A stretch of 64,000 nucleotides of DNA from an uncultured Acidimicrobiaceae bacterium (GCA_963791995.1 CAWBUQ010000016.1:39535-103534); one strand, 5' to 3'; counted from the stretch's first letter, positions 26,935-40,361 are shown. Made by a program: numbers and translations. The notes: generated by a model from the letters alone, not told the origin.

Positions 26935-27137
26935 CTGACCCTTTCGCGAGGTACTGCACGGCAGACCATCAGTCTCCTGGGTGCCGCCGGACATGACAAA
27001 ACGAGCGAGGCTTTCGCTCGAGCGGCGACACGACCACGACGCCGTCGTCCGCCTCGCCCTGCGGGAACGAAGCAGCGCGCGGCCGCGTGCGGGCGTGTGC
27101 GAGGATGTCGGGGTCCGGCGATGCAGAGGGGGCTGGA

Positions 27138-28865
27138 ATGGCATCGATTCGATTCGTTCGCGTGCTGTGCAGTGTCGCGCTGCTGGCGGGCCTGTTCACC
27201 GTTGTGACCGCTGCCGTGACGCCTGTTCTCGCCTCGGGCGGGACCCCCGTCCCTGGCGCTCCGAACTGCCCGATGTTCCCCGCCGACAACGTGTGGAACA
27301 CGCCCATCACCAACTTGCCGGTCGATTCGCATTCCGCCGCGTGGCTGGCCAGCATGGACGCCGGCTCGACCAACCTGCACCCCGACTTCGGGCCGTCGGG
27401 TGATCCTGCAAATCCCTATGGCATGCCGTACACGGTTGTCGCACCTAACCAACCCTTCGTCAGCGTGGCGTTCCAGTACGGGAGCGAGAGCGACCCCGGG
27501 CCGTACCCGCTCGGGGCGAACACGCCGATCGAAGGAGGGCAGAGTTCGACCGGTGATCGCCACGCCCTCATGGTGGACCCGAGCACCTGCACGCTCTACG
27601 AGCTCTACGACGCGCACTACAACGCCTCGGGATCGACGGCCGGGTCTGGCGCCATCTGGAACCTCAACTCCAACGCCCTGCGCCCGGCGGGGTGGACCTC
27701 TGCTGACGCGGCGGGTCTGCCCATCCTGCCCGGACTGGTCCGCTACGACGAGGTCGAGTCGGGCAGCATCACGCACGCCATCAGGATGACCGCGGAGACG
27801 ACCGACACCAGCTACGTCTGGCCGGCGCGGCACGAGGCGGGATCGAGCTCGAACTCCAACCTGCCGCCGATGGGAGCCCGATTCCGGCTGAAGGCCAGCT
27901 TCAACATCAGCGGGTTCTCGCCCCAGGCCCAAGTGGTGCTCCGGGCGATGCAGCAGTACGGACTGATCCTCGCCGACAACGGCAGCAACTGGTACTTCGG
28001 CGGTACCGCCGACCCGGCATGGCCACAATCGCTCGTCGACGAGTTGAAGGAGGTCCCGGCCAGCGAGTTCGAGGCGGTCGACGAATCGTCGCTCATGGTG
28101 AACCCGGACTCGGGCCAGGCTCGCAGCTTCCCTGGCCCGGTGACGGGCATCGCAGCACCGCCGTCGGGATCGGGGTACTGGCTCTCGGACGCCGAGGGTG
28201 CGGTCTCGGCGCACAACGTGGCGAGTGACGGCTCCATGGCGGGTACGCCGTTGAATGCGCCCATCGCCCACATCGTCTCGACTCCTGACGGCGGTGGTTA
28301 CTGGCTCGTGGCGGCCGACGGCGGCACGTTCGCTTTCGGCGATGCGGGATTCTTCGGTTCCATGGGCGGCACACATCTCAATGCGCCCGTCGTGAACATG
28401 GCCCCGACCCCGGACGGCCGTGGCTATTGGCTGGTGGCCAAAGACGGCGGCGTCTTCGCCTTTGGCGATGCGCCTTATTTCGGGTCCATGGGTGGCAGGC
28501 ACCTCAATGCGCCGATCGTGGGCATCGCCGCAGACCCACAGACGGGCGGATATTGGCTGGTGGCGTCCGACGGCGGGATCTTCGCCTACAACGCACCCTT
28601 CTATGGATCGACTGGCAACATCCACCTCCAGCAACCGGTGAACGGCATGACCACGGCATCCGGTGGGGGCGGGTACTGGATGGTGGCGTCTGACGGCGGG
28701 ATCTTCGCCTTCGGCCTCGCTCCATTCTGGGGCAGCACCGGGGCTATCCGCCTCAACGCGCCCGTGATGGGCATGGCCGAGGACGTGGCATCAGGGGGCT
28801 ACTGGATGGTCGGCTCCGACGGGGGCGTCTTCTCCTTCAACGCGCCGTTTTACGGTTCCGACTGA
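27138..28865 (+). CDS. Secreted protein: conserved N-terminal domain of unknown function plus six C-terminal repeats of about 40 aa
   Basis: GAGGGGG before ATG 27138. Signal peptide MASIRFVRVLCSVALLAGLFTVVTAAV. The ORF is intact. Confidence 0.8.
   Translation: MASIRFVRVLCSVALLAGLFTVVTAAVTPVLASGGTPVPGAPNCPMFPADNVWNTPITNLPVDSHSAAWLASMDAGSTNLHPDFGPSGDPANPYGMPYTVVAPNQPFVSVAFQYGSESDPGPYPLGANTPIEGGQSSTGDRHALMVDPSTCTLYELYDAHYNASGSTAGSGAIWNLNSNALRPAGWTSADAAGLPILPGLVRYDEVESGSITHAIRMTAETTDTSYVWPARHEAGSSSNSNLPPMGARFRLKASFNISGFSPQAQVVLRAMQQYGLILADNGSNWYFGGTADPAWPQSLVDELKEVPASEFEAVDESSLMVNPDSGQARSFPGPVTGIAAPPSGSGYWLSDAEGAVSAHNVASDGSMAGTPLNAPIAHIVSTPDGGGYWLVAADGGTFAFGDAGFFGSMGGTHLNAPVVNMAPTPDGRGYWLVAKDGGVFAFGDAPYFGSMGGRHLNAPIVGIAADPQTGGYWLVASDGGIFAYNAPFYGSTGNIHLQQPVNGMTTASGGGGYWMVASDGGIFAFGLAPFWGSTGAIRLNAPVMGMAEDVASGGYWMVGSDGGVFSFNAPFYGSD
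28173..28862 (+). repeat. Six tandem coding repeats (39-42 aa): GYW[LM]V..DGG.F.FG.A.F.GS.G...LNAP..G.A
   Basis: Repeat starts are read from the translation (GYWLSDAEG.., GYWLVAADGG.., GYWLVAKDGG.., GYWLVASDGG.., GYWMVASDGG.., GYWMVGSDGG..). A beta-propeller-blade periodicity is inferred. Confidence 0.7.
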
Positions 28866-29518
28866 GCCGCCTGGACCCTTCGAGGTGAGCCCGCCGGGGT
28901 CGCAAACTTCGATCCTGGGGCCCAGCGTCGAGCAGACGCACAGCCCTCACGCGCGATCGCGCCGCCGACTGGGTGGCCAGGATCGGGGTGTTCGCCGTGG
29001 CACCTCCGATCCTCGTCTACGCCATTCCCGGCTATCCGAACACCTACTACAACGAAGGCATCAACGAGATCTTCGGGTCGGCATCCTCCTCAACGAAGCC
29101 TCGGTCATCGGCGTGCTCGTGGCGCTGGCCGGCACTCTGCTGCACACGTAGCAGGCAGACAGAGGGCGACGGGTCAGCGCCGGCGCTGTGCAATCGACCG
29201 CGCCGGTTTGACGCACGTCCGAATATGACAGCGCGTGCCAGCGCACATATCTGAATGATGGACCGTACAATATGTACGGAAATCGGAAAATGTCCCCACA
29301 CTCCAATCGATGGGTGTACCATCACCTCCATGGAGCACGTCTACGCGGAGAGCTGCCGGGCGCACCGGTACTCAGAAGGTCTCACCGGCCTTCTGATGTC
29401 GCGCGGACGCGCCATGGCCCAGACCTTGAAGGCCCAATCCTTCGGTTGGGTCTCGATCGACCCCCGGGAGGTGCCCTCAACGGCATAACTAGGACTTATA
29501 TACGTCCAGTTCGTTGAG

Positions 29519-29548
29519 GAGCCGCTTCCGAAAGGGGGCGGCTCTTTT
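29519..29548 (+). terminator. Rho-independent terminator-like hairpin
   Basis: gagccgc (29519-25) / gcggctc (29538-44), 12-nt loop, followed by tttt (29545-48). Confidence 0.5.
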
Positions 29549-29591
29549 CTATTCCTGGGCCAGATGCGGAACTGAATAGTCAAACACTCGA

Positions 29592-29663
29592 AGGGGTGTA
29601 GTCCAGCGGAACGGACAGCCGGCTCCAACCCGGCGGACCTGGGTTCTACTCCTGCCACCCCTG
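29592..29663 (+). tRNA. tRNA-Trp(CCA), non-canonical T arm
   Basis: Acceptor AGGGGTG/CACCCCT, D arm GTCC/GGAC, anticodon stem GCCGG/CCGGC, loop CTCCAAC. T stem weak (CTGGG/CCTGC), T loop TTCTACT. Confidence 0.6.
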
Positions 29664-29789
29664 CAGGGCGAAGCCATGTCCTTTTTGCCTAAATGGGCAA
29701 TTGAACCACCGTACATTGACAACTAAATAGTACCCAAGATTGGGGATCGGAGCCACGTCTATTGGCGCGGCGACACCGACCGATCCCGC

Positions 29790-29873
29790 CCCGGTGACCT
29801 CTGTTGGCTAGAGGAGCGCGGCCGTAACCCGCGCGGCATTGTGCCTGCGGTCGTTCGATTCGACCCACCGGGA
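29790..29873 (+). tRNA. tRNA-Tyr(GTA), class II, C33
   Basis: Acceptor CCCGGTG/CACCGGG, anticodon stem CGCGG/CCGCG, loop CCGTAAC, long variable arm GGCA-ttg-TGCC, T arm GGTCG-TTCGATT-CGACC. Confidence 0.6.
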
Positions 29874-29877
29874 CCCT

Positions 29878-29953
29878 GGGCCCATGGCACGAGTGGTAGT
29901 GCACCTCGTTTGCAGCGAGACGCGTGCCGGTTCGAGCGCGGCCGGGTCCACCA
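29878..29953 (+). tRNA. tRNA-Ala(TGC) with G3:U70 and encoded CCA
   Basis: Acceptor GGGCCCA/CGGGTCC (G3:U70, A7.C66), D arm GCAC-GAGTGGTA-GTGC, loop TTTGCAG, T arm GCCGG-TTCGAGC-GCGGC (G53.G61), 3' ACCA. Confidence 0.65.
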
Positions 29954-30036
29954 CGCGGGCGGAAAAGGAAGACGCGCTGGGCTCAGACCCCGGTGGGCTC
30001 ACGCCCGTGAGAGTTCGACTCGCTCCGCTGGTACCA
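29950..30036 (+). tRNA. tRNA-Leu(CAG), class II, imperfect acceptor stem, encoded CCA
   Basis: D region GCGGAAAAGGAAGACGCG, anticodon stem CTGGG/CCCGG, loop CTCAGAC, variable arm GGGC-tcac-GCCC, T loop TTCGACT, 3' CGCTGGT-A-CCA. The 5' ACCACGC pairs only 4 of 7. Confidence 0.5.
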
Positions 30037-30037
30037 G

Positions 30038-30111
30038 GCGCCTCTAGCTCAGTTGGGAGAGCGATGGACTCTTAATCCATGCCGTCGGGGGGTCGAGTCC
30101 CTGGGGGCGCA
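30038..30111 (+). tRNA. tRNA-Lys(CTT), T loop lacks T54
   Basis: Acceptor GCGCCTC/GGGGCGC, D arm GCTC-AGTTGGGA-GAGC, anticodon stem ATGGA/TCCAT, loop CTCTTAA. T region GGGGG-GTCGAGT-CCCTG. Confidence 0.65.
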
Positions 30112-30199
30112 CTCGGCCGGAGTCATCCGGTCACACGCGTGGCTTCCACCCACGAGTAATGGGGGCGGTACCCATTGACCCCTCCATTCACGCAACCGC

Positions 30200-30269
30200 T
30201 CGGGAGTCGTCCAACGGCAAGACGCAAGGTTTGGTCCTTGAGATGAGGGTTCGACACCTTCCTCCCGAA
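30200..30269 (+). tRNA. tRNA-Gln(TTG)-like (or Pro TGG) with a 6-nt anticodon loop as assembled
   Basis: Acceptor TCGGGAG/CTCCCGA (U1:A72 as in bacterial tRNA-Gln), D region GTCCAACGGCAAGAC, anticodon stem CAAGG/CCTTG, loop TTTGGT, T arm GAGGG-TTCGACA-CCTTC. Confidence 0.5.
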
Positions 30270-30478
30270 CCGCCAGAAAGGAGGCGATTCAATGCGACAC
30301 AATCGGTTGAAGCTCGTCGTTCCCGACGACGCAGCAAAGAATGAGACGGAAGACGCGACCGAGTTCGTCGTAGGACCGGCGACGCCGGGTCCTTCTGCGG
30401 CGCGCCTTCGTCTCGTCGAGCGACGACGATGGACCGTTTCCGGACGGACGCGGCGTGACCAACTGTCGCTCGAGAATT

Positions 30479-30551
30479 GCCGGCCGGGCCCAACGGGATG
30501 GGCACTGGCTTTGTAACCCAGTCGATCCGGGTTCGAGTCCCGGGGCCGGCT
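30479..30551 (+). tRNA. tRNA-Thr(TGT)
   Basis: Acceptor GCCGGCC/GGCCGGC, D arm GCCC/GGGC, loop TTTGTAA (one C.C at the stem end), T arm CCGGG-TTCGAGT-CCCGG. Confidence 0.8.
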
Positions 30552-30554
30552 CGA

Positions 30555-30626
30555 GGTCATGTAGCTCAGTTGGGAGAGCGCGCGCCTGAAACCCTCGAGG
30601 CGATGGATCGAGACCACCCATGACCA
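30555..30626 (+). tRNA. tRNA-Phe(GAA)-like, poor anticodon stem and A54 T loop (possibly a pseudo-tRNA)
   Basis: Acceptor GGTCATG/CATGACC, D arm GCTC-AGTTGGGA-GAGC, loop CTGAAAC but the stem pairs 3 of 5. T region GATGG-ATCGAGA-CCACC. Confidence 0.45.
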
Positions 30627-30631
30627 CTTCG

Positions 30632-30706
30632 GGACACATAGCTCAGCGGCAGAGCGCCGGCACGACACGCCGGAGGTCGGGCTTTCGAAACGCCCTGTGT
30701 CCACCA
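30632..30706 (+). tRNA. tRNA-Val(GAC), C33, encoded CCA
   Basis: Acceptor GGACACA/TGTGTCC, D arm GCTC/GAGC, anticodon stem CCGGC/GCCGG, loop ACGACAC, T arm GGGCT-TTCGAAA-CGCCC, 3' A-CCA. Confidence 0.7.
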
Positions 30707-30715
30707 GTCATCTGA

Positions 30716-30787
30716 CGGCCCGGAGTCAGGCGGTGACGACGCCGCTCTGATACAGCGGAAGGCCTCGTTCGACACGGGGCGGGCCGA
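30716..30787 (+). tRNA. tRNA-Ile(GAT)
   Basis: Acceptor CGGCCCG/CGGGCCG, 3-bp D stem GTC/GAC, anticodon stem CCGCT/AGCGG, loop CTGATAC, T arm CCTCG-TTCGACA-CGGGG. Confidence 0.7.
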
Positions 30788-30792
30788 CCCGA

Positions 30793-30864
30793 GCATCCGT
30801 AGCTCAACGGCAGAGCGCCACGTTCACATCGTGGAAGTCGAAGGGTCAGCACCTCCCGGATGCA
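30793..30864 (+). tRNA. tRNA-Val(CAC), unusual T loop GTCAGCA
   Basis: Acceptor GCATCCG/CGGATGC, D arm GCTC-AACGGCA-GAGC, anticodon stem CCACG/CGTGG, loop TTCACAT, T region GAAGG-GTCAGCA-CCTCC. Confidence 0.65.
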
Positions 30865-30887
30865 CGTGGGCGCAGGCGTCCCCACTT

Positions 30888-30960
30888 GGTGGATGGAGCC
30901 GGATGGAGAGGCGGGTGGTCGTGGACCGCCCAGCAGGGAGTTCGATTCTCCTCATTCACC
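30888..30960 (+). tRNA. tRNA-His(GTG) with G-1:C73, C33
   Basis: G-1 (30888) plus acceptor GTGGATG/CATTCAC and discriminator C, anticodon stem GGTGG/CCGCC, loop TCGTGGA, T arm GGGAG-TTCGATT-CTCCT. Confidence 0.7.
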
Positions 30961-30984
30961 CGGGTCTTATGACCCGCAACGCAA

Positions 30985-31057
30985 CGCAGCGGGGAGGGAT
31001 GGTGACCTCACGGGTCTCATAAGCCCGAAGATCTCCGGTCAGTACGGAGCGCTGCGA
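30985..31057 (+). tRNA. tRNA-Met(CAT) (elongator Met or Ile2 type), unusual T loop GTCAGTA
   Basis: Acceptor CGCAGCG/CGCTGCG (C1:G72 paired, so not initiator-like), D arm GAGG/CCTC, anticodon stem CGGGT/GCCCG, loop CTCATAA, T arm CTCCG-GTCAGTA-CGGAG. Confidence 0.75.
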
Positions 31058-31102
31058 CTAGGGCCGGAGCACTCGTGCACTCGTGTCGCTTTGGGATACC
31101 TC

Positions 31103-31175
31103 GCCGGTGATGCTCGGGTGGCTGAGCGCCCACCTCGTACGCGGGAGCGCGAGAGTTCGACACTCTCCACCGGCT
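31103..31175 (+). tRNA. tRNA-Thr(CGT)
   Basis: Acceptor GCCGGTG/CACCGGC, D arm GCTC-GGGTGGCT-GAGC, loop CTCGTAC (stem with one A.C), T arm GAGAG-TTCGACA-CTCTC. Confidence 0.75.
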
Positions 31176-31460
31176 CTGGGCGGAGTCACCGCAAGCCCGA
31201 CTCGTGCACTTCGTGGGTGAACCCGGACCGATCTGGCGCACTGTTTGGTTGTCACTGTGAGCTGCATCGGGTCGCGAGCCCCAAGGGGGACGTCGGGACA
31301 GAACCGACTTCGTGCTGACCGAGGGTGGGACTGGGGACTCCGACGCGCAGACTTCGGATTCGATACCCGAAGGCTCTGGCAGGACCGGAGAGTGGCGAGG
31401 GCCGCGCTGTCCCGTGCTCGAACTCGTGGATCCTCGTAGGAGTGTGCCCCAGATCGGGTT

Positions 31461-33131
31461 TTGCCCCCGGTTACCATGCGGGGATGGCGCGCGGCATCGG
31501 GACCGTCTGATGCCGCGGGCCGCCCGAAGCGGCCGAGGCTGTCTCGGTGGCCCAACGCGCAGGCAACGGTCGCGGCTGGCTCGTCACGCGCTTGGCCTCA
31601 TGAGTATCAGCGCTTTCATCCTCGCGGACTGTCGCGGCTCCAAGTGGCGCGGGGACCGCGATTCACGTCCAAGAGCACCACCACGACGACGGTCCGGGCC
31701 GGCCAGCCGGTGGTCACGCCCGGCCACAGCACGACCAAAGGCCCGATCGGCACCAACCCCGCCAAGGCCCAGGGCGTCAAGCTCACCATTCTCAGTGGGT
31801 TGCTCCAAGGCGAGCCCATTTACAACGGAGACTTCGCGGACCCCTACGCCCTCTACGACGGAGACACCGTGTACACCTACGCAACCGGCACGACCGATGG
31901 TCCGGACGCGAAGGCGGCACACATCCCGGTCATCGCCATCACACGTTCGACCGGCTTCGCTGGGCACTATCTGGGCGACGCCCTCCCCACGCTGCCCAAG
32001 TGGACCGTGTCCGGCTACCAGTGGGCTCCGTCGGTGTGGGCACGGCCCGATGGGACCTTCGTCATGTACTACTCGACTCCGGCCACCAACCCGATCAATT
32101 GCATCTACAAGGTGACCAATCCGGGGTGCACCGTCACGACGAACGGACCGAATACGGCGATGTGCGTTTCCCGCGCCACCAGCACGAGCCCCTCCGGCCC
32201 GTTCGTCGACGACTCCTCCTCTCCGTTCATATGCCCCTACCAACAGGGCGGCGCGATCGATCCCAGCATCTACATTCGCTCCGACGGCACCCCGTGGCTG
32301 CTCTGGAAGAGCGATGGCGACTGCTGCAACCAGCCCACGTACATCTACTCCCAGCAGCTCTCCTCAGACGGGCTCTCCACGGTCGGACTACCCCATCTCC
32401 TCATTGGCGCCACCCAGGCGTGGGAGGGTGGCCTGGTCGAGGCACCTTCCATGATCAAGGAGGGATCTGTCTACTGGCTCTTCTACTCAGCCAACCTTTG
32501 GGGGACGCCCGACTACAGCATCGGCATCGCGGCGTGTACGTCAGTCACCGGCCCTTGCGCCAAGCCGCTCGATCGGGCGTGGCACACGAGCACCAACAAC
32601 GCGTTAGGTCAGGGGTACGGCGGGTCGGAGTTCTTCCAGACCGGAACCCTGATCTGGATGGTGCATCACGGGCTCGTCCCAGGAGAGACGGGCAACTACG
32701 CGGAGAGGCGTCTCTACGTCGACCTCGTGGTCTTCCCTCCGAGCGGGCTGCCCGAGGTGGCTGCCCGCGCACCCGCTGCTGCGATGGCCGATGCCGAGCT
32801 CTACTACGAGGACCCCAGCCTCCCGAAACAGCCCCAGAAGGCCTACACCCACCTGGTTTCAACCGTCCCGGTCCCGGGAGCGTTCGCCGGCGTCAGCGCT
32901 CAGAAGGCCATCGGCTTGGGCGAGTTGGCGTGCACCGGGCTCTCCCACCACGACGATTCATCGCAGCTCGTCGCTTCGCTCTCTGATCGCGGCCTGGACG
33001 ACTTCGAGTCCTACGTCGTGACGGAGTTCGCGGCCCAGTACCTGTGCCCGAAGGACACGCTGCAGGAATCGTCCGACATGCACCAAGCGCTTCTCACACG
33101 TCCCGGCCCCCGAGGATCAGCTAGCCGTTGA
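31461..33131 (+). CDS. GH43-family glycoside hydrolase with a C-terminal Cys-pair (DUF732-like) extension. Start uncertain.
   Basis: GDFADPYALYDGDTVYTY.., YQWAPSVWARPDGTFVMYYS, GGAIDPSIYIRSDGTPWLLWKSDG, VEAPSMIKEGSVYWLFYSANLW are five-bladed propeller GH43 patterns. No clear signal peptide in frame. Confidence 0.8.
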   Translation: MPPVTMRGWRAASGPSDAAGRPKRPRLSRWPNAQATVAAGSSRAWPHEYQRFHPRGLSRLQVARGPRFTSKSTTTTTVRAGQPVVTPGHSTTKGPIGTNPAKAQGVKLTILSGLLQGEPIYNGDFADPYALYDGDTVYTYATGTTDGPDAKAAHIPVIAITRSTGFAGHYLGDALPTLPKWTVSGYQWAPSVWARPDGTFVMYYSTPATNPINCIYKVTNPGCTVTTNGPNTAMCVSRATSTSPSGPFVDDSSSPFICPYQQGGAIDPSIYIRSDGTPWLLWKSDGDCCNQPTYIYSQQLSSDGLSTVGLPHLLIGATQAWEGGLVEAPSMIKEGSVYWLFYSANLWGTPDYSIGIAACTSVTGPCAKPLDRAWHTSTNNALGQGYGGSEFFQTGTLIWMVHHGLVPGETGNYAERRLYVDLVVFPPSGLPEVAARAPAAAMADAELYYEDPSLPKQPQKAYTHLVSTVPVPGAFAGVSAQKAIGLGELACTGLSHHDDSSQLVASLSDRGLDDFESYVVTEFAAQYLCPKDTLQESSDMHQALLTRPGPRGSASR

Positions 33132-35174
33132 CAGCCTCGCTCGGCCGTTGCGGCTCGGGGGCCGCCAACGTGCCCGTCTGCAGACGCCCGCTCGACTGAA
33201 GCCGAGCGCGGGTTGCCACCACATGGCAGTACTCGACGAGAGCGGTGCGATCAGCATCTGTGCCGCGGCGTCACGGTCCCGCCGACTCGCCAACGGTTGG
33301 ACGCCACTCGATCGGCTACGACATTCCGTCACCATCAGCATGAGGTGCGTCGACTGCGTACGGCCATCGACGAGGGGCAAATCGAGACTCAGCTCGGCCT
33401 GGGACCCGCGCTCGATGGCGACCGGGCTCACCAGGCCGACACCGCCCGTCGTGAGGTCCACCACTCTCACGATGCGGTCGCCGACCACGCCGGCGAGACT
33501 CCCCGGAGCCCGGTACTGGTGGCGAAGTTGCCGGCGCTCACTGACCTTCGCCAGCGCGGTCGCCGTCAACCCCAGCTCCCAGAGCCCCAGCGCCAGACCG
33601 ATCACGAGCGGGGCGGTGCCGAGTGTGGGCAGCGGGACGAGACCCGCCACGGCGAGTCCCCGCAGGACCAGGGCGGCGGCCAGCACAACAGCGATCCCCA
33701 TGACGAGCCGGAGCTGGCTCAGCGCCCGCCATCCTCCGTCGTCGATACCGTCTTTCGGGGTCACCTTGAAGGTAGAGGACGTCGGGCCGAACAGCGACAA
33801 CGCGGCCAAGGCGAAGATCTCCATCGTCAACAGCATCGTGTAGGTGCCGTCCCACAGGCTGGCGCGCCCTCGACAGAGCAGGGCCGAGGCCGCCATGTCG
33901 AGGGCGATCCACGGCAGCCAGAACATGAGGAACCCGCTGAGCGTTGCGTGCATCGGCAGCTGCCCACTGATCAACATGATCGTCAGAACGGCCAGAAGAC
34001 CTAACCGTTGAAGGGGGACGAAATACGCCAGCAGCGACGAGAGGTAACTGACCCGCTGGGACGGCGACAGGTGGCGCGCCACCAGTGGATTCTCGGGAGT
34101 CTTGAAGACCGCCAGATTGCCGCGTGCCCAGCGGTCTCTCTGCAAGAGATAGGACGACAGGTCGTGGGGCGCCAGACCCTGTACGAGGGTCTCGTTGTGA
34201 AAGCGCGTCTTCCATCCGCGCCCGTGCATCTTGATGGTGGTGTGGAAGTCCTCCGCGATGGTCTGTGTCGCCACTCCCCCCACCTCGACGAGCGCGGCGC
34301 GCCGGATCACCGCCGCAGAGCCGCACCAGAAGACGCCGTTGTGTCGATCCTTCCCGGGCAAGATCACCTCGAAGAACATGCTCTGGTCGTGCTTGCCGGT
34401 GGCAAAATGCTGGAACGAGTCCTGGTTGCTGAAATCATGCGGGGTCTGGACGACGGCCACGTCGGAGTCGTCGAAGTAGCCCACGGTCGCGTCGAGGATG
34501 TCGGGCTGAGGCACGTGGTCGGCATCGAGCACGAGGAGCAGGTCGCCGTTGAGGACCTTCAAGGCGTGGTTGATGTTGCCGGCCTTGGCGTGTGTGTTGT
34601 CGGGCCGGGTGACGTAGCGCGCCCCGAATCGATTCGCCAGCTGACGCACCGTCTCACGACGACCGTCGTCGAGGATCCAGGTCACATGTGGGTACGTGAT
34701 GCGGGCACACCCGAGCAGAGTGGCTTCGAGCACGTCCATGCCCTCGTCGTAGGTGCAGACGACGACGTCCACGCTGTGAGACTGCTCGATCTGGGGCCGC
34801 GTGGACTTCGGAATGCGCCACGACAAGAAGCAGAAGCTGGCCAGCATCAACCAGCCGAACAACTCGCAGGCGAACAGCAGCACGAAGAGAGCCGGTTCCG
34901 TGTGCTCCCACGTGTCGATGACCCGCCATCCCAGGTACACGCCGCCCCAGAGGACTGCGAACAAGGCAACGACACGGATGAAGATCTCGTTCCTCAACCA
35001 CTTAGGTGCGACGGGGGCACGGGGTGCTGCATGTCTCACATCCAATGAATCGACAACGGGGGTGAGGGAATTGAGGCCCAGTTGCGCAGTTGGTTCCTGG
35101 GCTCGGACTGTTGTGAACCAGTTGACCGTTTCTTGTTGATTGTGCGTTGTTCGAGCGCTTATCAGCCGCGTCAT
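33117..35174 (-). CDS. Cellulose-synthase-like processive GT2 (BcsA-like) with C-terminal PilZ domain
   Basis: VVVCTYDE, ILDDGRR, LVLDADH, VFWCGSAAV, TIAEDFHT, LLQRDRWARG (QxxRW), multiple TMs. PilZ motifs RRQLR and DLTTGG. Confidence 0.85.
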   Translation of the reverse strand: MTRLISARTTHNQQETVNWFTTVRAQEPTAQLGLNSLTPVVDSLDVRHAAPRAPVAPKWLRNEIFIRVVALFAVLWGGVYLGWRVIDTWEHTEPALFVLLFACELFGWLMLASFCFLSWRIPKSTRPQIEQSHSVDVVVCTYDEGMDVLEATLLGCARITYPHVTWILDDGRRETVRQLANRFGARYVTRPDNTHAKAGNINHALKVLNGDLLLVLDADHVPQPDILDATVGYFDDSDVAVVQTPHDFSNQDSFQHFATGKHDQSMFFEVILPGKDRHNGVFWCGSAAVIRRAALVEVGGVATQTIAEDFHTTIKMHGRGWKTRFHNETLVQGLAPHDLSSYLLQRDRWARGNLAVFKTPENPLVARHLSPSQRVSYLSSLLAYFVPLQRLGLLAVLTIMLISGQLPMHATLSGFLMFWLPWIALDMAASALLCRGRASLWDGTYTMLLTMEIFALAALSLFGPTSSTFKVTPKDGIDDGGWRALSQLRLVMGIAVVLAAALVLRGLAVAGLVPLPTLGTAPLVIGLALGLWELGLTATALAKVSERRQLRHQYRAPGSLAGVVGDRIVRVVDLTTGGVGLVSPVAIERGSQAELSLDLPLVDGRTQSTHLMLMVTECRSRSSGVQPLASRRDRDAAAQMLIAPLSSSTAMWWQPALGFSRAGVCRRARWRPPSRNGRARLSTAS

Positions 35175-35604
35175 TCACGAACCCGGCGGCCGTTGCCTCC
35201 TCACCCAGCTCCAGGGCACGAACGTTGTGCGCGACGTCGCCTCTTCTTCGTCGGTCGACACCGCCGTTGAGTGGTTCGCAGGCACGCGGTGGATCCATAG
35301 AGCGAGATCCCGTGCATCGGCAGCGCCCGTTCCCGTGCACCGCCCTCAAGACCGTCTTGACCAGTGACGAAAGTCATAGGTGCCCCCCGTTGAGCAGCCG
35401 CTACGCCGCACGACGACACACGGTCCGCACCGAGGCCATCCAGAAGATCGCTGGGCTCCGCGAAGCGTTGACTCGAGTCGTCCGCTCACGGGGTGGGATG
35501 CCGGCGGTGGTGGCTTCGGCGCGCCGCCTCTCGACACCCATTCCGATGGGCCGACCGACTCAACGGAGCCCGTTGCGGCGCGGCCCAAGACGCGGTGGAC
35601 GTGG

Positions 35605-36210
35605 ATGATCGGGCTGCTGACGTTCACCACCTTCGCCGTCGGCGGCGTCTTCGGTGCGCAAGCCGCGTTCTCGTCGCCGAATGGCACCATGCAGTCGCAT
35701 GGCACCGCTCACCTGGCACGGTTCGTCACACCGACTTCCGTCACGACCTCGACGACCACTTCGAGTACGACCACCACAACAACGACCGCGCCCGCACCGG
35801 TTCAGGCCGCGCCACCAACGACTGCTCCGGCACCTCCCCCAGCGCCAGCTCCAGCACCGACGGCCGCCGTCGTGCCGGCGGCACCGCCTGCGGTACCGGC
35901 CTTCGGCCAGGCGACGGCGTGGGGGTGCCCGGCGGCCCTTGCGTACCTGCAGGCGTACGCAGCACCAGGCTTCGCCTTGTCATGCCCCGGTTACGCCCTT
36001 GGCCACGAGGCAATGACGTGCGTGCACAGCACGCCGCAGTACCCGAACGCCTGTCCCAACGGTCCGACGATCGACATCTCCGACGCCTGCCCGCAGGCCT
36101 ACATGAACGAGACGGCGAACTCGTGGTATCTGACCGGCCAGCTCGCCACCGAGCAGCAGAAGTACGGGGTGTCCTACGCCTCCATCGACCCCTTCGGAGC
36201 GTGCCCCTAA
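35605..36210 (+). CDS. Secreted/anchored protein: TM or signal, Thr/Pro-rich linker, 8-Cys C-terminal domain (unknown function)
   Basis: MIGLLTFTTFAVGGVFGAQA.., TTSTTTSSTTTTTTTAPAPVQAAPPTTAPAPPPAPAPAP.., then ..WGCPAAL..LSCPGY..MTCVH..NACPN..DACPQ..FGACP*. The start could be further upstream. Confidence 0.6.
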   Translation: MIGLLTFTTFAVGGVFGAQAAFSSPNGTMQSHGTAHLARFVTPTSVTTSTTTSSTTTTTTTAPAPVQAAPPTTAPAPPPAPAPAPTAAVVPAAPPAVPAFGQATAWGCPAALAYLQAYAAPGFALSCPGYALGHEAMTCVHSTPQYPNACPNGPTIDISDACPQAYMNETANSWYLTGQLATEQQKYGVSYASIDPFGACP

Positions 36211-36334
36211 GGGTTCCGAAACAGCGGCTTCTTGAACTTCGGCCTCCATGGAGAGGTTTCTCCGGAGACCTTTGACCTCTCGAACCAGCAAGAGAGCGGC
36301 TTGCGAGATACAACCGTCCGAGACATCGCTCAGA

Positions 36335-38114
36335 TCACTCGGCCGGTAGGCGCCACCCCACGAGTGCAGCACGCAGACGCTTCAGAGGTGCCTTGGGAGT
36401 TCTGTCCATGCGCACCAAGCCGTTGGTCTCTTGAAACGTGTCGGTGAGTTGCGTCCAGCAGTATCCCGAAATCACCGGGCTGTACAAGACCGCTCGACAA
36501 ATGTCGCAGACTTGCTCGAGCCACGATTCGATCGTGGGGGCATTGCCGTAGCCATAGGCGTCAGGTGCTTCCTCGGCGAGCATGATGCCACCGCATTCCG
36601 ACAGGACGATTGCCCGCGACTCGGCGTCGAACTCGTCAAGGGCCAACGTCCGTATTTCAGGGCCCAGGCCATCGAATAACTCGCCGACACTCTGAGCAGA
36701 CGCGTACCGCGAGGTGAGCGCCGCCGCATCCTGCATGTAGTCGTGAATACCGATCACGTTTCCACCCCACGTCTCCCAGCCGTCGTTTGCGCTGATGAGA
36801 CGGTGCGGGTCGAGTGCCATCGTCAGATTCGTGAGCCCTCGCAAGGCCGCACGGTGTTGCTCGTTGTGAGTGAGATCTGGAAACCCCCACGATTCATTGA
36901 CTGGAACCCACGCGATGATCGACGGATGGTTGCAATCTCGAGAGATGACGCGCATCCACTCGGTCGTCAAGGCGACGACCGTACTGCGGCGAGAACTCGT
37001 GGGCACTGGGGAGTTCTTCCCAGACGAGAACCCCAAGTTCATCGCAGAAAGCAAGCCAGCGCGGATCCTCGATCTTCTGATGTTTGCGAACACCATTGAG
37101 GCCCAGCTCCTTGACCAATTCGACATCTCGGCGCAGTGCCGCCACGTCGGGAGCAGTGAGTCCGCTGTCAGGCCAGTATCCCTGGTCAAGAGCCATCCGA
37201 AGGGTGAGCAGCTCACCATTCAGCCATATGCGTCCACGCTCAACCGCGACGGAGCGGATCCCCACATAGCTTTCGACCGCGTCGGTCTCACTTCCGGTGA
37301 CGTACTCGATGGAGGCATCAATCAGAGTGGGCCGATCGGGGCTCCAGAGAAGGCCCGCCGGATCCTCTGTCGCGGCGGATTGCAGGTTGAATGTTCGGGC
37401 TACTTGGACGCTCTGGTCGCGCACGCCCTTCACAGCGATCTGGTCGTCGATCAATGGCCTCGTGCCCTGAAACAGCCGCACTCGCATGAAATCCCCAGGG
37501 CGTGGATCTCCTTGAATTTCTGCTCTCAGTGATACGGACGGCCCATCGATATCTGATGTCCAGTCGAGCTGCGCGATGTAGGTCCTCGGAGTCCATTCCA
37601 GCCACACCGACTGCCAAATCCCAGTGGTGCGGCTGTACCAGATCTCGTGCGGCTTCGATGTCCAATCCTGCTTCCCGCGTGGAAGACCTTTCCTCCTCGG
37701 GAAGTCATCCGCCCGCACCACAATTTCGAGCTCATCTGCCTCAGACACAGCGTGACTGATGTCGACAGCAAATGGAGTGTGTCCTCCCTCGTGGGAGCCA
37801 ACCATCTCCCCGTTGACCCAAACCCAGGACGCCCAATCGATCGCTCCGAAGTGAAGGATGACCCTCTTCTCAGATGGATGATCGACCGGCGGCCGCCACA
37901 TCCGGCGGTACCAACACCGGCTCAGATCTCCAGTGAACTTGACGCCACTGAGCACCGTTTCGGGACAGAAGGGCACCAGGATGCGTGCGTCGAAGTCCAC
38001 ATCAGAGGGGTGCTGCCACCCGCTGTCGGGATCCACTGCAAAATCCCACGACCCGTCGAGGCTCTCCCACGTGGAGCGCCGAAGAAGGGGACGCGGAAAT
38101 TGTTCGTCTCGCAT
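36335..38114 (-). CDS. GH2-family glycoside hydrolase (beta-galactosidase/glucuronidase-like), 1 frameshift near 36960
   Basis: ..VILHFGAIDWASWVWVNGEMVGSHEGGHTPF..; ..GLNGVRKHQKIEDPRWLAFCDELGVLVWEE..; ..NHPSIIAWVPVNESWG..; ..SECGGI.. (ORFs 36894-38114 and 36335-37219). Confidence 0.8.
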
Positions 38115-38589
38115 TCGGAGGTCCCATCGTGTTGGTGGATGTTTCCCCTAAGCTTGCCCGTGCCAGAAGGGAGCGGGTAATGCCCCTGGTCACAGGCTCG
38201 AACCCTCAAGCAAGCTGGCCCGCTCTGGGCAGCGCGTCATGCAGGGTCTCGCATATCCACCTGCCCGGATCTTGGGTCTGGGTCTGCCGTGAAGGGCTGA
38301 ACGTGAGCGTCTTCGCGCCATGGGCAAGGGCGGGGAGATTCGCCGACCGCATCCTGGACGCGGGAGGCCGATAACGACGCCGGCCTTTTGGCCGAATGAA
38401 CCCAGAACTTTTCCAATTCGGCAGCACACGCCTAGCCATCGGGCGGCTGATTGAAACCATGGTTGGATTCTCCGGGACGGGGTAAAGACAACCAAAGCGC
38501 AACGGAAGCCATAGAGGCGTGTCTACAAGGATCGCTCCCGCCGCGCGGATGACCGGCAACTACTGCCGTAAAGGATGGTATGAGACGCC

Positions 38590-39219
38590 ATGTGGCGAGG
38601 TGTCTACGCGCCAGTCTCGGCGCTACTTCTCGTGGTCACTTTGGGCACATTCGGGGTTCCCGCCGGTGCCAAAAGCGCCCAGAGCGATCTTCAGGCGAAG
38701 GCGCTGTCCATTTCCGATATGCCGAGCGGGTGGACCAAGGACAGGTCGCCCCAAGCTGCCAACCTTTCGAGTCTCGGGGGCTGCCTCAAGGAATTGGCCG
38801 ACCCCAAGAAGCCCGCTGGCCTTTTCCAGGTGGCTGTGGCATTCGGCCTTCATTCCCTGCCCGCACTCGAGGAGGTTCTCGACACAGGCAAGACGGCGCA
38901 AACCCGCTACGACAAGTCCATTGAGGTACTGAGCAACTGCACCACGGTGCGCATCACGAGGAACGGAAAGACGTTCACTTGCTCAGTGGACGCGATGACC
39001 TTTCCAGCGATTGCCGATTCGTCCTCGGCGTACAGCATTTCCCTCACGGCCGAGGGTGTCTCCATCGACATCGACATCATCTACTTCCGTCTTGGAAACA
39101 TTTACGGCAGCTTGAGCTACGAGAACTTCTCACCCGCCGAGGGCACGGTCGAAGACTTCGTCGATGAGGCCGTGAGCAAGGTTGAAGGCAGCCCCATCAA
39201 GACAGCGGTGAGCAGTTGA
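38590..39219 (+). CDS. Secreted hypothetical protein
   Basis: Signal-like N-terminus MWRGVYAPVSALLLVVTLGTFGVPAGA. Intact 209-aa ORF in an AT-richer stretch. No family recognised. Confidence 0.55.
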   Translation: MWRGVYAPVSALLLVVTLGTFGVPAGAKSAQSDLQAKALSISDMPSGWTKDRSPQAANLSSLGGCLKELADPKKPAGLFQVAVAFGLHSLPALEEVLDTGKTAQTRYDKSIEVLSNCTTVRITRNGKTFTCSVDAMTFPAIADSSSAYSISLTAEGVSIDIDIIYFRLGNIYGSLSYENFSPAEGTVEDFVDEAVSKVEGSPIKTAVSS

Positions 39220-39370
39220 GTCGGCCGAGGGCGAAGACGCGAGTTAGCCGGCACGATCCCTCTTCAGACTGACAACGTCTGCCACAAACGGACGCATTCA
39301 CTGGCACTGGACCCGCGCAGCTGGAAGACAATCTTGGTTGAGCGCTGGCAGTCCGGGACCGCGTCGAAGC

Positions 39371-39697
39371 TCAGGCCTCTGGAGGCTCCTCGACAGCGCC
39401 CGGGGGCAAGGTGCCGGTGGCGGCCTCCCAGCCGATAGCGGCGAGGCGGGCAGTCATCACCTTGGTGATGCCGAGGCCGATGCCCGCTGCGGCAGCCCAC
39501 AGCAGTGCGTCGGGCCACGAGAATCGAGCGTCGGTGAGGTCAAACGGCGTAGCCGGGGCAGTGTCCTTACTGACGGCCTTATACGTGGCCCGGATGAGTT
39601 TCCGAGCGAGCAGCCCACCCAACATGCCGGTGACCACCGAGACAACTTTCCACGCCCGCTCACGGCCGGCCGTGTCGGGCGCTTGATGAACGGTCAC
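39371..39697 (-). CDS. Small membrane protein, DUF4235-like
   Basis: ..AWKVVSVVTGMLGGLLARKLIRATYKAV.. and a C-terminal TM ALLWAAAAGIGLGITKVM. Family name from memory. Confidence 0.55.
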   Translation of the reverse strand: MTVHQAPDTAGRERAWKVVSVVTGMLGGLLARKLIRATYKAVSKDTAPATPFDLTDARFSWPDALLWAAAAGIGLGITKVMTARLAAIGWEAATGTLPPGAVEEPPEA

Positions 39698-40094
39698 CCC
39701 AGCAATCTACTAACCGCCTGGGATTGATGCCCACGCTCGGAGTCGGCGTCTGGAAACCGATTCCATAGCCCGAGCGGCGGTCGGGTGCAGCGGGGCTCGT
39801 CTTCGCGTCGTCAGGGATGTTGGGCACCGCAGGCTGAGAGCTCCCCTTCGCCCTTCGCCCATTTCCGCGCCCGGCTCCGTAGACGCTCCCGTGAGTCCGT
39901 CGACATCGACAATCCGTTGCCGACTGCACGGGAGGACTCCAGCCAATGAATGAGCATCCATCTGAAGAGGCGAGCCGAGATGCCGGTTACCGATGCGGAC
40001 CGCCGCTTCAGGTTCCGATGGCCCAGGGAATGCCGGCAGCTCTCAGATGGAAACGGCGGGGTCATCGGGCTACTACCGCCGGTGAGAGCGAAAA

Positions 40095-40170
<76 letters not shown>

Positions 40171-40361
40171 CCCCGGAATGTGAAGCAAAGGGTCCAAGAA
40201 CAGCCCCCGAACGTTAGCAGCGAGCCAATGGGCTGACGGCTCCCGAAGCGCCTCAGAGAACGCCCCTGAGGAGGGCTCTTGGAGACGGCGGCCCGCCCGT
40301 CTGGCGCTTCCAGCCGGCGCAGACCGGGCAGACCGAAGCGTCATTCCCGTAACCTTCGACC

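Follow-up and report, generated by a model that had tools for sequence, protein, structure and literature searches.

The question raised by the locus at 29592-31176 of the 64-kb stretch of DNA analyzed here (hereafter the window), which comes from an uncultured member of the Acidimicrobiaceae, is whether its tightly packed tRNA genes represent an acquired supplementary set, a streamlined but working operon or a remnant in decay. The array itself is real. Thirteen same-strand tRNA genes in this interval are backed by ARAGORN and Rfam, which upholds the dense array described in the initial annotation, but the fourteenth cloverleaf reported there, Leu-CAG, was called by neither tool and is a pseudogene. 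With default settings, ARAGORN predicted 12 plus-strand tRNAs from 29592 to 31058 and a single further tRNA in the remaining 62 kb of the window, and Thr-CGT was added only at a relaxed threshold. When the gathering score of the Rfam model RF00005 (29 bits) was used as the cut-off for member calls, 10 of the 14 members passed with 32.2-53.2 bits, and the Leu remnant stayed below it, as did Tyr, His, Ile and Met. The Tyr and His genes matched weakly, and only to the clan-mate tRNA-Sec model, and Ile and Met had no Rfam match; all four were called by ARAGORN, which folded the latter two, and show family-wide conservation of 92-98%.

All genes of the array lie on the plus strand, the 13 genes occupying 1585 bp at a density of 8.2 per kb. 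Spacers measure 0-44 nt except for three longer gaps of 125 nt (Trp-Tyr), 87 nt and 207 nt, where two gaps of 88 and 209 nt had originally been counted. Repeat finding revealed short similarities between tRNAs, with no repeated unit and no periodicity, and the codon-position GC signal is absent between about 28900 and 31450. As noticed before, the array region is richer in AT than its surroundings (GC 0.62-0.64 versus about 0.67-0.72 in the flanks). This lower GC was considered as evidence of transfer and discarded, as it is expected of non-coding RNA genes in a 70% GC genome.

Judging from related genomes, the window probably contains a copy, now degenerating, of a supernumerary tRNA/RNA-repair cassette of the L-array type that is conserved in Acidimicrobiaceae. 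A 20-nt probe from the tRNA-Met T arm led to 25 species-level metagenome-assembled genomes (MAGs) and a 20-mer core of a TTGACA-containing motif to 45 soil or peat metagenome contigs, and both sets share one cassette with the same parts. In its intact form this is a long tRNA operon with no periodicity. It begins with a structured leader RNA with a terminator, tRNA-Trp and the invariant TTGACA-containing motif, continues with 27-30 more tRNAs in fixed order (the whole set spanning 20 amino acids) and an embedded micro-ORF of 54 aa, and is followed by the RNA ligase RtcB, a DIP1984/DUF6847 protein and, 3' of DIP1984, a conserved non-coding tail of about 240-290 nt, whose RNA may have a tRNA-like T arm. 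Intact relatives carry 27-31 tRNAs per array, and one gene order with up to 31 slots is common to the 25 MAGs and the short-read metagenome contigs. Of 24 loci that could be assessed, 22 have RtcB directly 3' of the array, with 85-96% amino-acid identity, and DIP1984/DUF6847 comes next. Intact copies show signs of selection: the tRNAs are 90-98% identical across genomes, compared with about 60-65% for the Gln-Thr spacer, and substitutions from the consensus rarely break pairs in well-kept copies (28 substitutions and no broken pair in L031, 45 and 1 in L015, 75 and 4 in L018). All homologues that were found belong, without exception, to Acidimicrobiaceae/Acidimicrobiales MAGs or to soil and peat metagenomes. 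This intact family is a more interesting object than the window copy.

The array genes of the window are probably supernumerary rather than housekeeping, a conclusion supported by the coexistence of the two kinds of gene seen for Asn. Relatives carry an array tRNA-Asn beside the canonical tRNA-Asn, the two being 66-68% identical and the array copy having C33. The supplementary nature of the set, as initially proposed, is thereby supported, together with the finding that several relatives have no array at the syntenic locus: the cassette is absent there in L001 and L003-L006, and the genome of L006 carries it elsewhere (L022). Supernumerary status is further implied by this presence or absence and by independent decay among relatives. 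Arrays are reduced in L007, L030 and L023, and these reductions are independent events because each has lost a different subset. In the window, the housekeeping tRNA-Asn(GTT) was rightly described as canonical (ARAGORN; Rfam 69.9 bits), but it lies at 40105-40177 on the minus strand and not at 40095-40166. With an identity of 97-100% between genomes, it marks the vicinity of the cassette in several of them, the cassette lying a few kb from its 3' side also in L002, L028 and L047.

A promoter-like -10 hexamer, TACCAT (29317-29322), stands 7 nt 5' of the conserved leader start, and this column keeps TAnnnT in 15 genomes with varying inner bases (TACCAT, TATCAT, TACGAT, TAGCAT and TATTCT), which is consistent with a promoter role. 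A sigma-70 consensus scan found nothing. The structured leader RNA itself (29330-29548, plus strand) is conserved 5' of tRNA-Trp in 15 arrays and is closed by a predicted intrinsic terminator (hairpin 29519-29544 plus TTTT). RNAalifold proposed 81 pairs, with 96% of cells paired and compensatory changes at 7 pairs, and the covariation score exceeded that of all 500 shuffles; no Rfam family was above threshold for the leader. Reading the leader as a 52-codon ORF was rejected, since substitutions are flat by codon position (39/35/36) and the frame is interrupted in 6 genomes. In the window, neither the leader nor the -10-like box is damaged. Directly 3' of tRNA-Trp, a terminator scan detected a terminator-like hairpin with a T-run (29665-29690), conserved in the alignment, and the Trp-Tyr gap contains the AT-rich motif ACATTGACAACTAAATAGTAC(G/C)C(C/A)AGATTGGGGATCGG (29713-29750) with a perfect TTGACA. 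This motif, a putative internal promoter or operator, is nearly invariant in 15 genomes and more conserved than the tRNAs, and the window has two private substitutions within it.

Against the family, the oddities of the individual tRNAs fall into two classes. The identity elements quoted in the initial annotation (G3:U70 in Ala, G-1 and C73 in His, U1:A72 in Gln and the long variable arm of Tyr), the unusual T loops, C33 in some members and the restriction of encoded CCA to a few (Ala, Val-GAC and the Leu remnant) were all confirmed; what did not hold is the reading of most non-canonical features as possible decay, since the T loops GTCAGCA, GTCAGTA and ATCGARA as well as C33 are conserved across the family. 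C33 occurs in its GUN-anticodon tRNAs (His and Asn, plus many Tyr and Asp copies) and is also found in Val (Val-GAC), Glu and Leu. The real lesions are of other kinds: extensive deletions, private substitutions that break stems, the loss of Leu as a gene and a deletion in the Gln anticodon loop.

Among the members with such lesions, tRNA-Trp(CCA) (29592-29664; ARAGORN; Rfam 41.3 bits versus 53.4 for intact orthologues) has a private G-to-T change that makes its T loop TTCTACT, with one T-stem pair broken, where 14 of 17 family copies have TTCGACT. In tRNA-Ala(TGC) (29878-29953; 32.2 bits versus 43-46 in intact arrays), two pairs are broken relative to the family. The tRNA-Leu(CAG) pseudogene (29954-30037) lacks 6 nt of the acceptor/D region compared with the intact L002 orthologue, its 3' acceptor strand is mutated, and 4 of its pairs are broken. 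The next gene, tRNA-Lys(CTT) (30038-30112; 48.2 bits versus 61.6 intact), has the private T loop GTCGAGT in place of the family's TTCGAGC or TTCGAGT. The gene left as "Gln/Pro" by the initial annotation is indeed a tRNA, and its identity is tRNA-Gln(TTG) (30200-30271; ARAGORN), one T having gone from a T4 run so that the 6-nt loop TTTGGT replaces the family TTTTGGT. Of the 25 MAG loci, 15 have the 7-nt loop, as do all nine short-read contigs covering this tRNA, and the 6-nt loop is found in the window and L013 only; the shorter loop may be a homopolymer assembly error. In tRNA-Phe(GAA) (30555-30627; 46.5 bits versus 64.2 in three intact arrays), the T loop is ATCGAGA compared with ATCGAAA in the family, and three pairs are broken. 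Finally, tRNA-Thr(CGT) (31103-31176; 36.2 bits versus 42.8) has a private anticodon-stem mismatch.

Among the remaining members, the C33 loop form of tRNA-Tyr(GTA) (29790-29875; ARAGORN) is no private lesion because it is common to other family copies (8 of 18, plus 27 short-read contigs). Both tRNA-Thr(TGT) (30479-30552; 48.6 bits) and tRNA-Val(GAC), with its family-wide C33 (30632-30706; 53.2 bits), were called by ARAGORN, as were tRNA-Ile(GAT) with an atypical D arm (30716-30789; one base off the family consensus and 92.5% mean identity over 23 genomes), tRNA-Val(CAC) (30793-30865; 49.9 bits), tRNA-His(GTG) with C33 (30888-30961) and tRNA-Met(CAT) (30985-31058). The T loop GTCAGCA of Val-CAC is identical in 20 of 24 genomes and recurs in short-read contigs. 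The most conserved member is tRNA-Met, with 98% mean identity and the T loop GTCAGTA identical in all 26 copies.

Parts of the cassette other than tRNAs survive in the window in various states. The micro-ORF (30276-30458, plus strand; Shine-Dalgarno GAAAGGAGG at 30276-30284, ATG at 30292) is conserved as 51-58 aa in at least 20 arrays, with the pattern MRHNRLKLVVPED...LRLVDADEGxxPDDAA*, and its homologues were found in these tRNA arrays only; its product matched no Pfam, NCBIfam or PADLOC family. The window version is broken by two +1 indels, so that its C-terminal part is out of frame and the frame as read continues to 30516. A block-deletion junction, at which slots Pro-CGG to Gly-GCC were lost, is followed by a conserved spacer element (30133-30190, plus strand) with the anticodon-arm-like hairpin CGTGG-CTTCCAC-CCACG: window 29365-30135 aligns with L002 2700-3474, window 30133 onward aligns with L002 from 4748 onward, and a 55-nt spacer segment is 100% identical to L002. 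At this element in L027, relaxed ARAGORN calls a Gly-TCC tRNA. Scars of the deleted right half were detected at 31228-31352 (plus strand) by BLASTN against the 25 loci, comprising the leader 5' of RtcB (31228-31259), some 30 nt from the RtcB 3' end (31259-31288; a weak match with E about 6e-4 to two loci) and the conserved tail end (31301-31352). A tblastn search over the 64 kb detected no RtcB, DIP1984 or integrase.

Taken together with the lesions above, the losses are extensive: 17 of 31 tRNA slots, RtcB, DIP1984 and most of the tail are gone from the window, the internal deletions covering the Pro-to-Gly block, Leu-CAA, Leu-GAG and the right-hand genes. Lys-TTT is also missing, and its slot is absent in several other genomes too. 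Relative to the 28-29-tRNA array of L002, the window shows four collinear blocks of 76-92% identity split by deletions. It has 14 broken pairs over 14 slots (~1 per tRNA) versus 0-0.15 per tRNA in the best-kept copies, and Rfam scores are 6-18 bits under those of intact orthologues for 7 of 9 comparable tRNAs. With 25 private substitutions per 1022 nt, the window ranks sixth from the top among 26 genomes. Of the five that exceed it, L030, L007, L023 and L019 carry arrays that are reduced or heavily mutated, and the array of L011 is cut by the locus end. Most of the private substitutions of the window (21 of 25) hit otherwise invariant sites. Their excess may partly reflect a long terminal branch because the window has no close relative among the representatives, the best match being 96% identical over the tRNAs. 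Of the options first raised for this array, decay is favored by the deletions, broken pairs and private substitutions.

It is rather improbable that the window instead carries a streamlined and still functional supplementary operon, in which selection kept 11-13 tRNAs on the retained leader once RtcB and other parts became dispensable. Such streamlining would fit the retention of leader, -10-like box and internal motif, and the six of 14 slots that are clean, with Met, Ile and His 1-3 bases off the family consensus. It would also fit the private stem substitutions, 9 of 16 of which (56%) break a pair versus 83% expected under neutrality, although this lower fraction equally means that constraint on the window tRNAs is relaxed but not absent. 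However, lesions affect the other eight slots (including the dead Leu gene, three Phe pairs and the 6-nt Gln loop), the micro-ORF is frameshifted, the invariant motif has private changes, the deletions cut through RtcB and left fragments instead of a clean excision, and the retained tRNAs follow no obvious amino-acid or codon logic. The remnant may retain partial function, given the intact leader and the six tRNAs free of new lesions.

Recent acquisition of a phage or plasmid tRNA cluster, whether as the remnant of a prophage or as an island inserted at tRNA-Asn, was part of the original proposal and appears very unlikely. Flanking contexts differ among genomes, at least four of which have the cassette close to the 3' side of tRNA-Asn. 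A tyrosine-recombinase gene with a frameshift follows downstream in L009, and an ISL3 transposase adjoins the cassette in L002. But BLAST against phage and plasmid sequences gave generic single-tRNA matches only, two cassette-specific probes had no match in 2.9 million viral contigs, and an integrase accompanies just 1 of 25 loci. The window flanks encode proteins such as glycoside hydrolases, a Nudix hydrolase and a glycosyltransferase, with no integrase, phage structural or replication genes and no direct or att-like repeat of tRNA-Asn. The 70 homologous loci all belong to a single bacterial family or to the habitats of that family. Even less credible is an assembly or sequencing artefact, that is, a collapsed or chimeric repeat-rich tRNA region with long-read indel errors. 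Related assemblies are probably long-read: their contigs exceed 1 Mb, and several genes of L005 are split relative to L004, as is typical of indel errors. If the window assembly is long-read as well, the 1-nt indels in the Gln T-run and the micro-ORF could be consensus errors. The 6-nt Gln loop does lie in a T homopolymer, and it was seen in just two MAG loci and in none of the short-read contigs. The array tRNA paralogues, however, are too dissimilar for collapse, the 25 private changes are substitutions, long collinear homology flanks the deletion junctions, and other genomes show independent and different reductions.

For the degenerating-cassette explanation, gene linkage and analogy suggest that the intact cassette probably backs up and repairs the tRNA pool under certain conditions. 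The extra tRNAs, with their unusual anticodon and T loops, may be poor substrates for tRNA-cutting toxins, cleaved tRNAs would be resealed by RtcB, and the leader with its terminator would control when the module is expressed. The window remnant would no longer be a self-sufficient set because it covers 11-12 amino acids and has no ligase; it is presumably under relaxed selection, and at most a few intact members (Thr-TGT, Val-GAC, Ile, His, Met and Tyr) may be transcribed from the retained leader/promoter region. A bolder and rather doubtful proposal is that the intact relatives represent a kind of "tRNA backup and repair" operon not described before, spread throughout the Acidimicrobiaceae of soil and peat and equipped with a riboswitch- or attenuator-like leader, selected to sustain translation or to act as a decoy when toxins or defence nucleases cut housekeeping tRNAs. 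If this were true, the intact leader of the window remnant would still drive its expression, and the remnant would supply a subset of nuclease-resistant tRNAs.

Among known systems, L-arrays such as the trn operon of Anabaena sp. PCC 7120, described in 2021 with about 26-43 tRNA genes, are among the closest; cyanobacterial L-arrays neighbour rtcB, with co-induction under translational stress, and Actinobacteria are among the phyla with reported L-arrays (PMC8421152). The window array shows the single orientation, tight spacing and lack of periodicity that define them, and the cassette likewise includes some pseudogenes, has rtcB in its neighbourhood and probably adds redundant isodecoders to the host set (PMC8421152). 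L-arrays are further characterized by silence during normal growth and by a patchy occurrence among taxa that indicates horizontal spread (PMC8421152). In contrast to L-arrays, which are sprinkled across species, the cassette was found in one bacterial family, has RtcB and the DIP1984 protein physically fixed at the array 3' end in nearly all copies, possesses a conserved tail RNA, a micro-ORF within the array and a structured leader with terminator, and has no homing endonuclease; the window copy also differs in having 13 genes and no RtcB. A tRNA array unit was defined as at least 20 tRNA genes at two or more per kb (Tran et al. 2016; PMC5966550), and the window reaches this density but, with 13 genes and one pseudogene, not this number. 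The arrays of Mycobacterium chromosomes, plasmids and phages resemble the cassette in their actinobacterial host, 20-39 tRNAs at 2-9 per kb, all 20 isotypes, interspersed CDSs and structured non-coding RNAs, and GC near that of the host. Rather than RtcB/DIP1984, their associates are HNH endonucleases, tmRNA, RF-1 or Pth, as well as plasmids and prophages (Morgado and Vicente 2018; PMC5966550). They share no sequence similarity with the window array and have another gene order, and the window copy is below their 20-gene threshold.

RtcB joins RNA ends carrying a 3'-phosphate or 2',3'-cyclic phosphate to 5'-OH ends. Rtc RNA-repair operons, such as rtcBA with RtcR and rsr-yrlBA-rtcBA of Salmonella, respond to damaged tRNAs and, similar to the cassette, place RtcB beside tRNA-like or structured non-coding RNAs (PMC7790460). 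Unlike in these operons, no RtcA, RtcR or Rsr was seen adjoining the cassette, and Rfam YrlA had no match at threshold; in the 64-kb window, the RtcB gene is absent and ~30 nt of its 3' end remain. Phage T4 counters PrrC by Rnl1/PNK tRNA repair, its extra tRNAs being linked to an RNA ligase that mends cleaved tRNA, whereas the cassette, unlike T4 and phage clusters, is chromosomal and has RtcB as its ligase instead of Rnl/PNK. Similar to phage tRNA clusters, whose anticodon-loop changes are predicted to let them escape cleavage by anticodon nucleases (van den Berg et al. 2023; PMC10264068), the extra tRNAs of the cassette have altered anticodon loops with C33 in His, Asn, Val-GAC and many Tyr and Asp copies.

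ARAGORN at default settings called 12 tRNA genes on the plus strand of the 64-kb window (29592-31058), and a thirteenth, Thr-CGT (31103-31176), was called at a relaxed threshold. Thirteen of the 14 cloverleaves listed in the initial annotation were recovered in this way, and the remaining one, Leu-CAG (29954-30037), was called by neither ARAGORN nor Rfam. The T loops, identity elements, and C33 cases quoted there were all found in the sequence; the tRNA left as Gln or Pro is Gln, with an anticodon loop of 6 nt, and the long spacers number three (125, 87, and 207 nt) rather than two. The sole further tRNA called by default, a housekeeping tRNA-Asn, had also been noticed, with coordinates about 10 nt off and on the opposite strand, and lies at 40105-40177 on the minus strand. 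With the Rfam tRNA model (gathering score 29), ten array members scored 32-53 bits and the housekeeping tRNA-Asn 69.9 bits. Tyr and His gave a weak match to the related tRNA-Sec model only, and Ile and Met had no Rfam match, yet ARAGORN folded both as cloverleaves. No codon-position GC signal was detected in the window from about 28900 to 31450.

A 20-nt probe from the T arm of tRNA-Met, searched against a species-representative genome collection, retrieved 25 loci, all from Acidimicrobiaceae or Acidimicrobiales metagenome-assembled genomes of soil and peat, and a second probe, the invariant motif of the Trp-Tyr spacer, retrieved 45 JGI metagenome contigs from soil or peat. A single tRNA order of up to 31 slots, covering all 20 amino acids, is shared: slots 1-10 are Trp, Tyr, Ala, Leu-CAG, Lys-CTT, Pro-CGG, Gln-CTG, Asp, Arg-ACG, and Arg-CCG; slots 11-20 are Thr-GGT, Arg-CCT, Ser-GCT, Ser-CGA, Glu-TTC, Glu-CTC, Asn, Cys, Gly-GCC, and Gln-TTG, followed by a micro-ORF; and slots 21-31 are Thr-TGT, Phe, Val-GAC, Ile, Lys-TTT, Val-CAC, His, Met, Leu-CAA, Thr-CGT, and Leu-GAG. 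RtcB (85-96% identity) directly follows the last tRNA in 22 of the 24 assessable loci, and the gene for a DIP1984/DUF6847 protein comes next. PADLOC gave no defence-system match for RtcB, DIP1984, the micro-ORF, or their neighbours.

The window array is a reduced derivative of this conserved cassette, having lost 17 of the 31 slots as well as the protein genes. Neither RtcB nor DIP1984 occurs anywhere in the 64-kb window, and 3' of Thr-CGT there are only short scars (31228-31352), which derive from the RtcB leader, the 3' terminus of RtcB (about 30 nt), and the terminal part of the non-coding tail. At the related locus L002, where GH43 is 85% identical to that of the window, the array comprises 28 tRNAs (29 at the relaxed threshold) in the same order, and is followed by RtcB, the DUF6847 protein, an ISL3 transposase, and the housekeeping tRNA-Asn. 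The two loci align in collinear blocks with deletions between them (29207-30135, 30133-30789, 30793-31068, and 31081-31177 in the window). Compared with L002, Leu-CAG of the window lacks 6 nt and its 3' acceptor strand is mutated, and the Gln anticodon loop reads TTTGGT instead of TTTTGGT; Val-CAC, Met, and Phe have the same odd T loops at both loci. In another relative, L001 (GH43 89% identical), the array is absent at the syntenic locus. That a short array might be the ancestral state was rejected in view of the RtcB and tail scars together with the independent, different reductions found in other genomes.

The odd T loops and C33, which the initial annotation had considered as possible decay, are mostly conserved across the family. 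GTCAGCA was found in Val-CAC (20 of 24), GTCAGTA in Met (26 of 26), and ATCGAAA in Phe, Asp, and Glu-TTC; further conserved odd T loops were detected in Thr-GGT, Cys, and Gly. Similarly, C33 is conserved family-wide in Val-GAC, His, Asn, Glu-TTC, and Leu-CAA and is a common variant in Tyr, Asp, and Thr-GGT. These features recur in short-read assemblies and are therefore not long-read artefacts. In well-kept arrays, substitutions from the consensus largely spare the stems (28 substitutions with no broken pair in L031, 45 with one in L015, and 75 with four in L018), suggesting purifying selection on the folded tRNAs. Such structure-preserving evolution argues for use of the odd tRNAs, and this extends to members that carry C33 or G54/G58-type T loops or score low with covariance models.

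The suspicion that the window array may be decaying is, in turn, favoured by block deletions, loss of the ligase, 14 broken pairs, and a micro-ORF out of frame. The broken pairs are counted over 14 slots, of which only six are clean. Private substitutions amount to 25 over 1022 nt and hit otherwise invariant sites in 21 cases; 9 of the 16 in stems break a pair, compared with 83% expected under neutrality. In density of private substitutions the window ranks sixth of 26 genomes; of the five that exceed it, L030, L007, L023, and L019 have arrays that are reduced or heavily mutated, and L011 is truncated by the end of the locus. The closest representative is 96% identical over the tRNAs, and, as no close relative exists among the representatives, the terminal branch of the window is long. 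Seven of the nine comparable window tRNAs score 6-18 bits under their intact orthologues with Rfam, for example Phe (46.5 vs. 64.2), Lys-CTT (48.2 vs. 61.6), Gln-TTG (44.1 vs. 57.6), and Trp (41.3 vs. 53.4). The array bears inactivating or destabilising lesions. Single-base indels, such as those in the Gln T-run (about 30230) and the micro-ORF, may be consensus errors because the related assemblies, with very long contigs and split genes, look long-read; the 6-nt Gln loop was seen just in the window and in one other locus (L013).

Several non-tRNA elements accompany the tRNAs. Upstream of tRNA-Trp lies a conserved, structured leader RNA of about 220 nt (29330-29548), which ends in a strong intrinsic terminator and is preceded by a -10-like box (29317-29322). 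Its fold has 96% of cells paired and 7 compensatory pairs, and it may act as an attenuator or riboswitch-like leader for the array. Reading the leader as protein was rejected, as its 52-codon frame (29330-29488) shows no third-position bias, is interrupted in six genomes, and has no family match. The Trp-Tyr spacer contains an AT-rich motif of 38 nt (29713-29750) with a perfect TTGACA. This motif exceeds the tRNAs in conservation, being near-invariant in 15 genomes and 45 metagenome contigs, and carries two private substitutions in the window. It may be an internal promoter or operator; since a sigma-70 consensus scan found no promoter, promoter assignments stay inferential. The micro-ORF lies between Gln-TTG and Thr-TGT in every array (30276-30458 in the window; 3441-3605 in L009, for instance), has a strong Shine-Dalgarno sequence, and encodes 51-58 aa (about 54) with a conserved N-terminus (MRHNRLKLVVPED) and C-terminus (DEGxxPDDAA*). 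No homologue outside these arrays and no family match were found for it, and in the window it is frameshifted by two +1 indels at about 30405-30450, which leave the conserved C-terminal part out of frame. Downstream of the DIP1984 gene, a conserved non-coding tail of about 240-290 nt is present in L009 (6392-6650), L031, L029, and others, with a 7-bp closing stem, a T-arm-like hairpin (GGGGTTCAAATCCCC), and few covariations; the window retains a remnant at 31301-31352. The tail may serve RtcB as a tRNA-like or Y-RNA-like partner. Rfam gave no hit above threshold for leader or tail, only a 22-bit BjrC68 match over the terminator, and a YrlA identity was discarded because the YrlA matches were tRNAs.

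The initial annotation had considered a horizontally acquired set; an origin from phages or plasmids found no support. Phage and plasmid collections yielded just generic single-tRNA matches of 60-140 nt and no further similarity to the known arrays of such elements, and two cassette-specific 20-mers had no match in viral contigs. A prophage or island inserted at tRNA-Asn was rejected on account of the flanking genes, which include polysaccharide and glycoside enzymes, and of the lack of an integrase and of a direct, att-like repeat of tRNA-Asn in the window. The genes around the array, in a window of about 70% GC, encode a secreted repeat protein, a GH43-DUF732 protein whose homologues assign the window to uncultured Acidimicrobiales, a GT2 glycosyltransferase, a Nudix hydrolase, an FMN reductase, and similar functions, with no phage-like gene among them. 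Among the loci checked, an integrase neighbours the cassette in L009 only, and that gene is frameshifted. Flanks outside the cassette limits vary between genomes, and tRNA-Asn and RpoD occur near several copies (the window, L002, L028, and L047).

The window element fits the known kind described as long tRNA array or tRNA array unit and is rated as a degraded member of it: intact relatives reach the 20 tRNA genes that define such a unit and have RtcB, whereas the window copy has 13 tRNA genes and no RtcB. In relatives, the array Asn coexists with the housekeeping Asn of the same genome, to which it is 66-68% identical; the array tRNAs are probably diverged paralogues that exist beside a housekeeping set. 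Cyanobacterial L-arrays adjoin rtcB, share regulation with this gene, and are switched on under translational stress (PMC8421152), and anticodon-loop changes of phage tRNAs are predicted to allow escape from anticodon nucleases (PMC10264068). By these two analogies, the intact cassette may represent a conditional tRNA backup-and-repair module, in which the leader and terminator would gate expression, the array tRNAs would resist anticodon nucleases, and RtcB would mend cleaved tRNAs. The window remnant is probably under relaxed selection and, as a system, largely without function; its few intact tRNAs may still be transcribed.

Taken alone, the window copy is an ordinary outcome, a probably supernumerary tRNA array caught degenerating, which indicates that such arrays are dispensable and that their erosion proceeds by block deletions and loss of the linked ligase before point lesions follow. 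The main value lies in the family to which it pointed, which is conserved across 25 or more species of uncultured Acidimicrobiaceae and in 45 metagenome contigs from soil or peat, and in which a full tRNA set is tied to RtcB, the DIP1984 protein, two unannotated structured RNAs, and a micro-ORF. With its fixed RtcB-DIP1984 linkage, leader and tail RNAs, micro-ORF, and systematic C33, this family appears to have no description in the literature searched. Its copies, some intact, some partly decayed, and some dead, form a tractable natural series for asking what long tRNA arrays are for, and the family also yields a concrete prediction of nuclease-resistant array tRNAs and RtcB repair.

Anticodons vary at orthologous slots 24, 25, and 29 (e.g., in L009, L014, L018, L019, L020, L025, and L031): some genomes have TCT, CTC, CTT, or TTC in the Lys-TTT slot, L020 and L025 have GCT in the Ile slot, and L031 has CGA in the Leu-CAA slot, which reflects either anticodon remoulding or drift. 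In addition, a 55-nt spacer segment (30133-30190), 100% identical to L002, contains a hairpin that resembles an anticodon arm and carries TCC. A perfect 7-bp acceptor-like stem flanks the segment in L002, relaxed ARAGORN called it Gly-TCC in L027, and in the window the block deletion cuts into its 5' side. It may be a D-armless tRNA-like element.

Between GH43 and tRNA-Asn, the region 33117-40100 appears to be a variable island in decay, with lower GC (0.60-0.67) and weak coding signal, and is missing at the syntenic loci of relatives. On its minus strand are a GT2 cellulose-synthase-like gene and a truncated GH2 fragment (36894-38114). An aldehyde dehydrogenase ORF (40362-41564) matches just about the first 276 of roughly 480 profile positions and is likely truncated or decaying; its L001 orthologue is likewise short (340 aa). 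Upstream of the array, 27087-28865 encodes a 592-aa secreted protein with 126-nt tandem coding repeats (GGYWLVASDGGIFAFG-type), paralogues of which lie beside the cassette in L018, L027, and L029. In the short-read contig L047, a 726-aa protein with a PD-(D/E)XK / REase-ARP nuclease domain (806-2986) is encoded between the housekeeping tRNA-Asn and the cassette.
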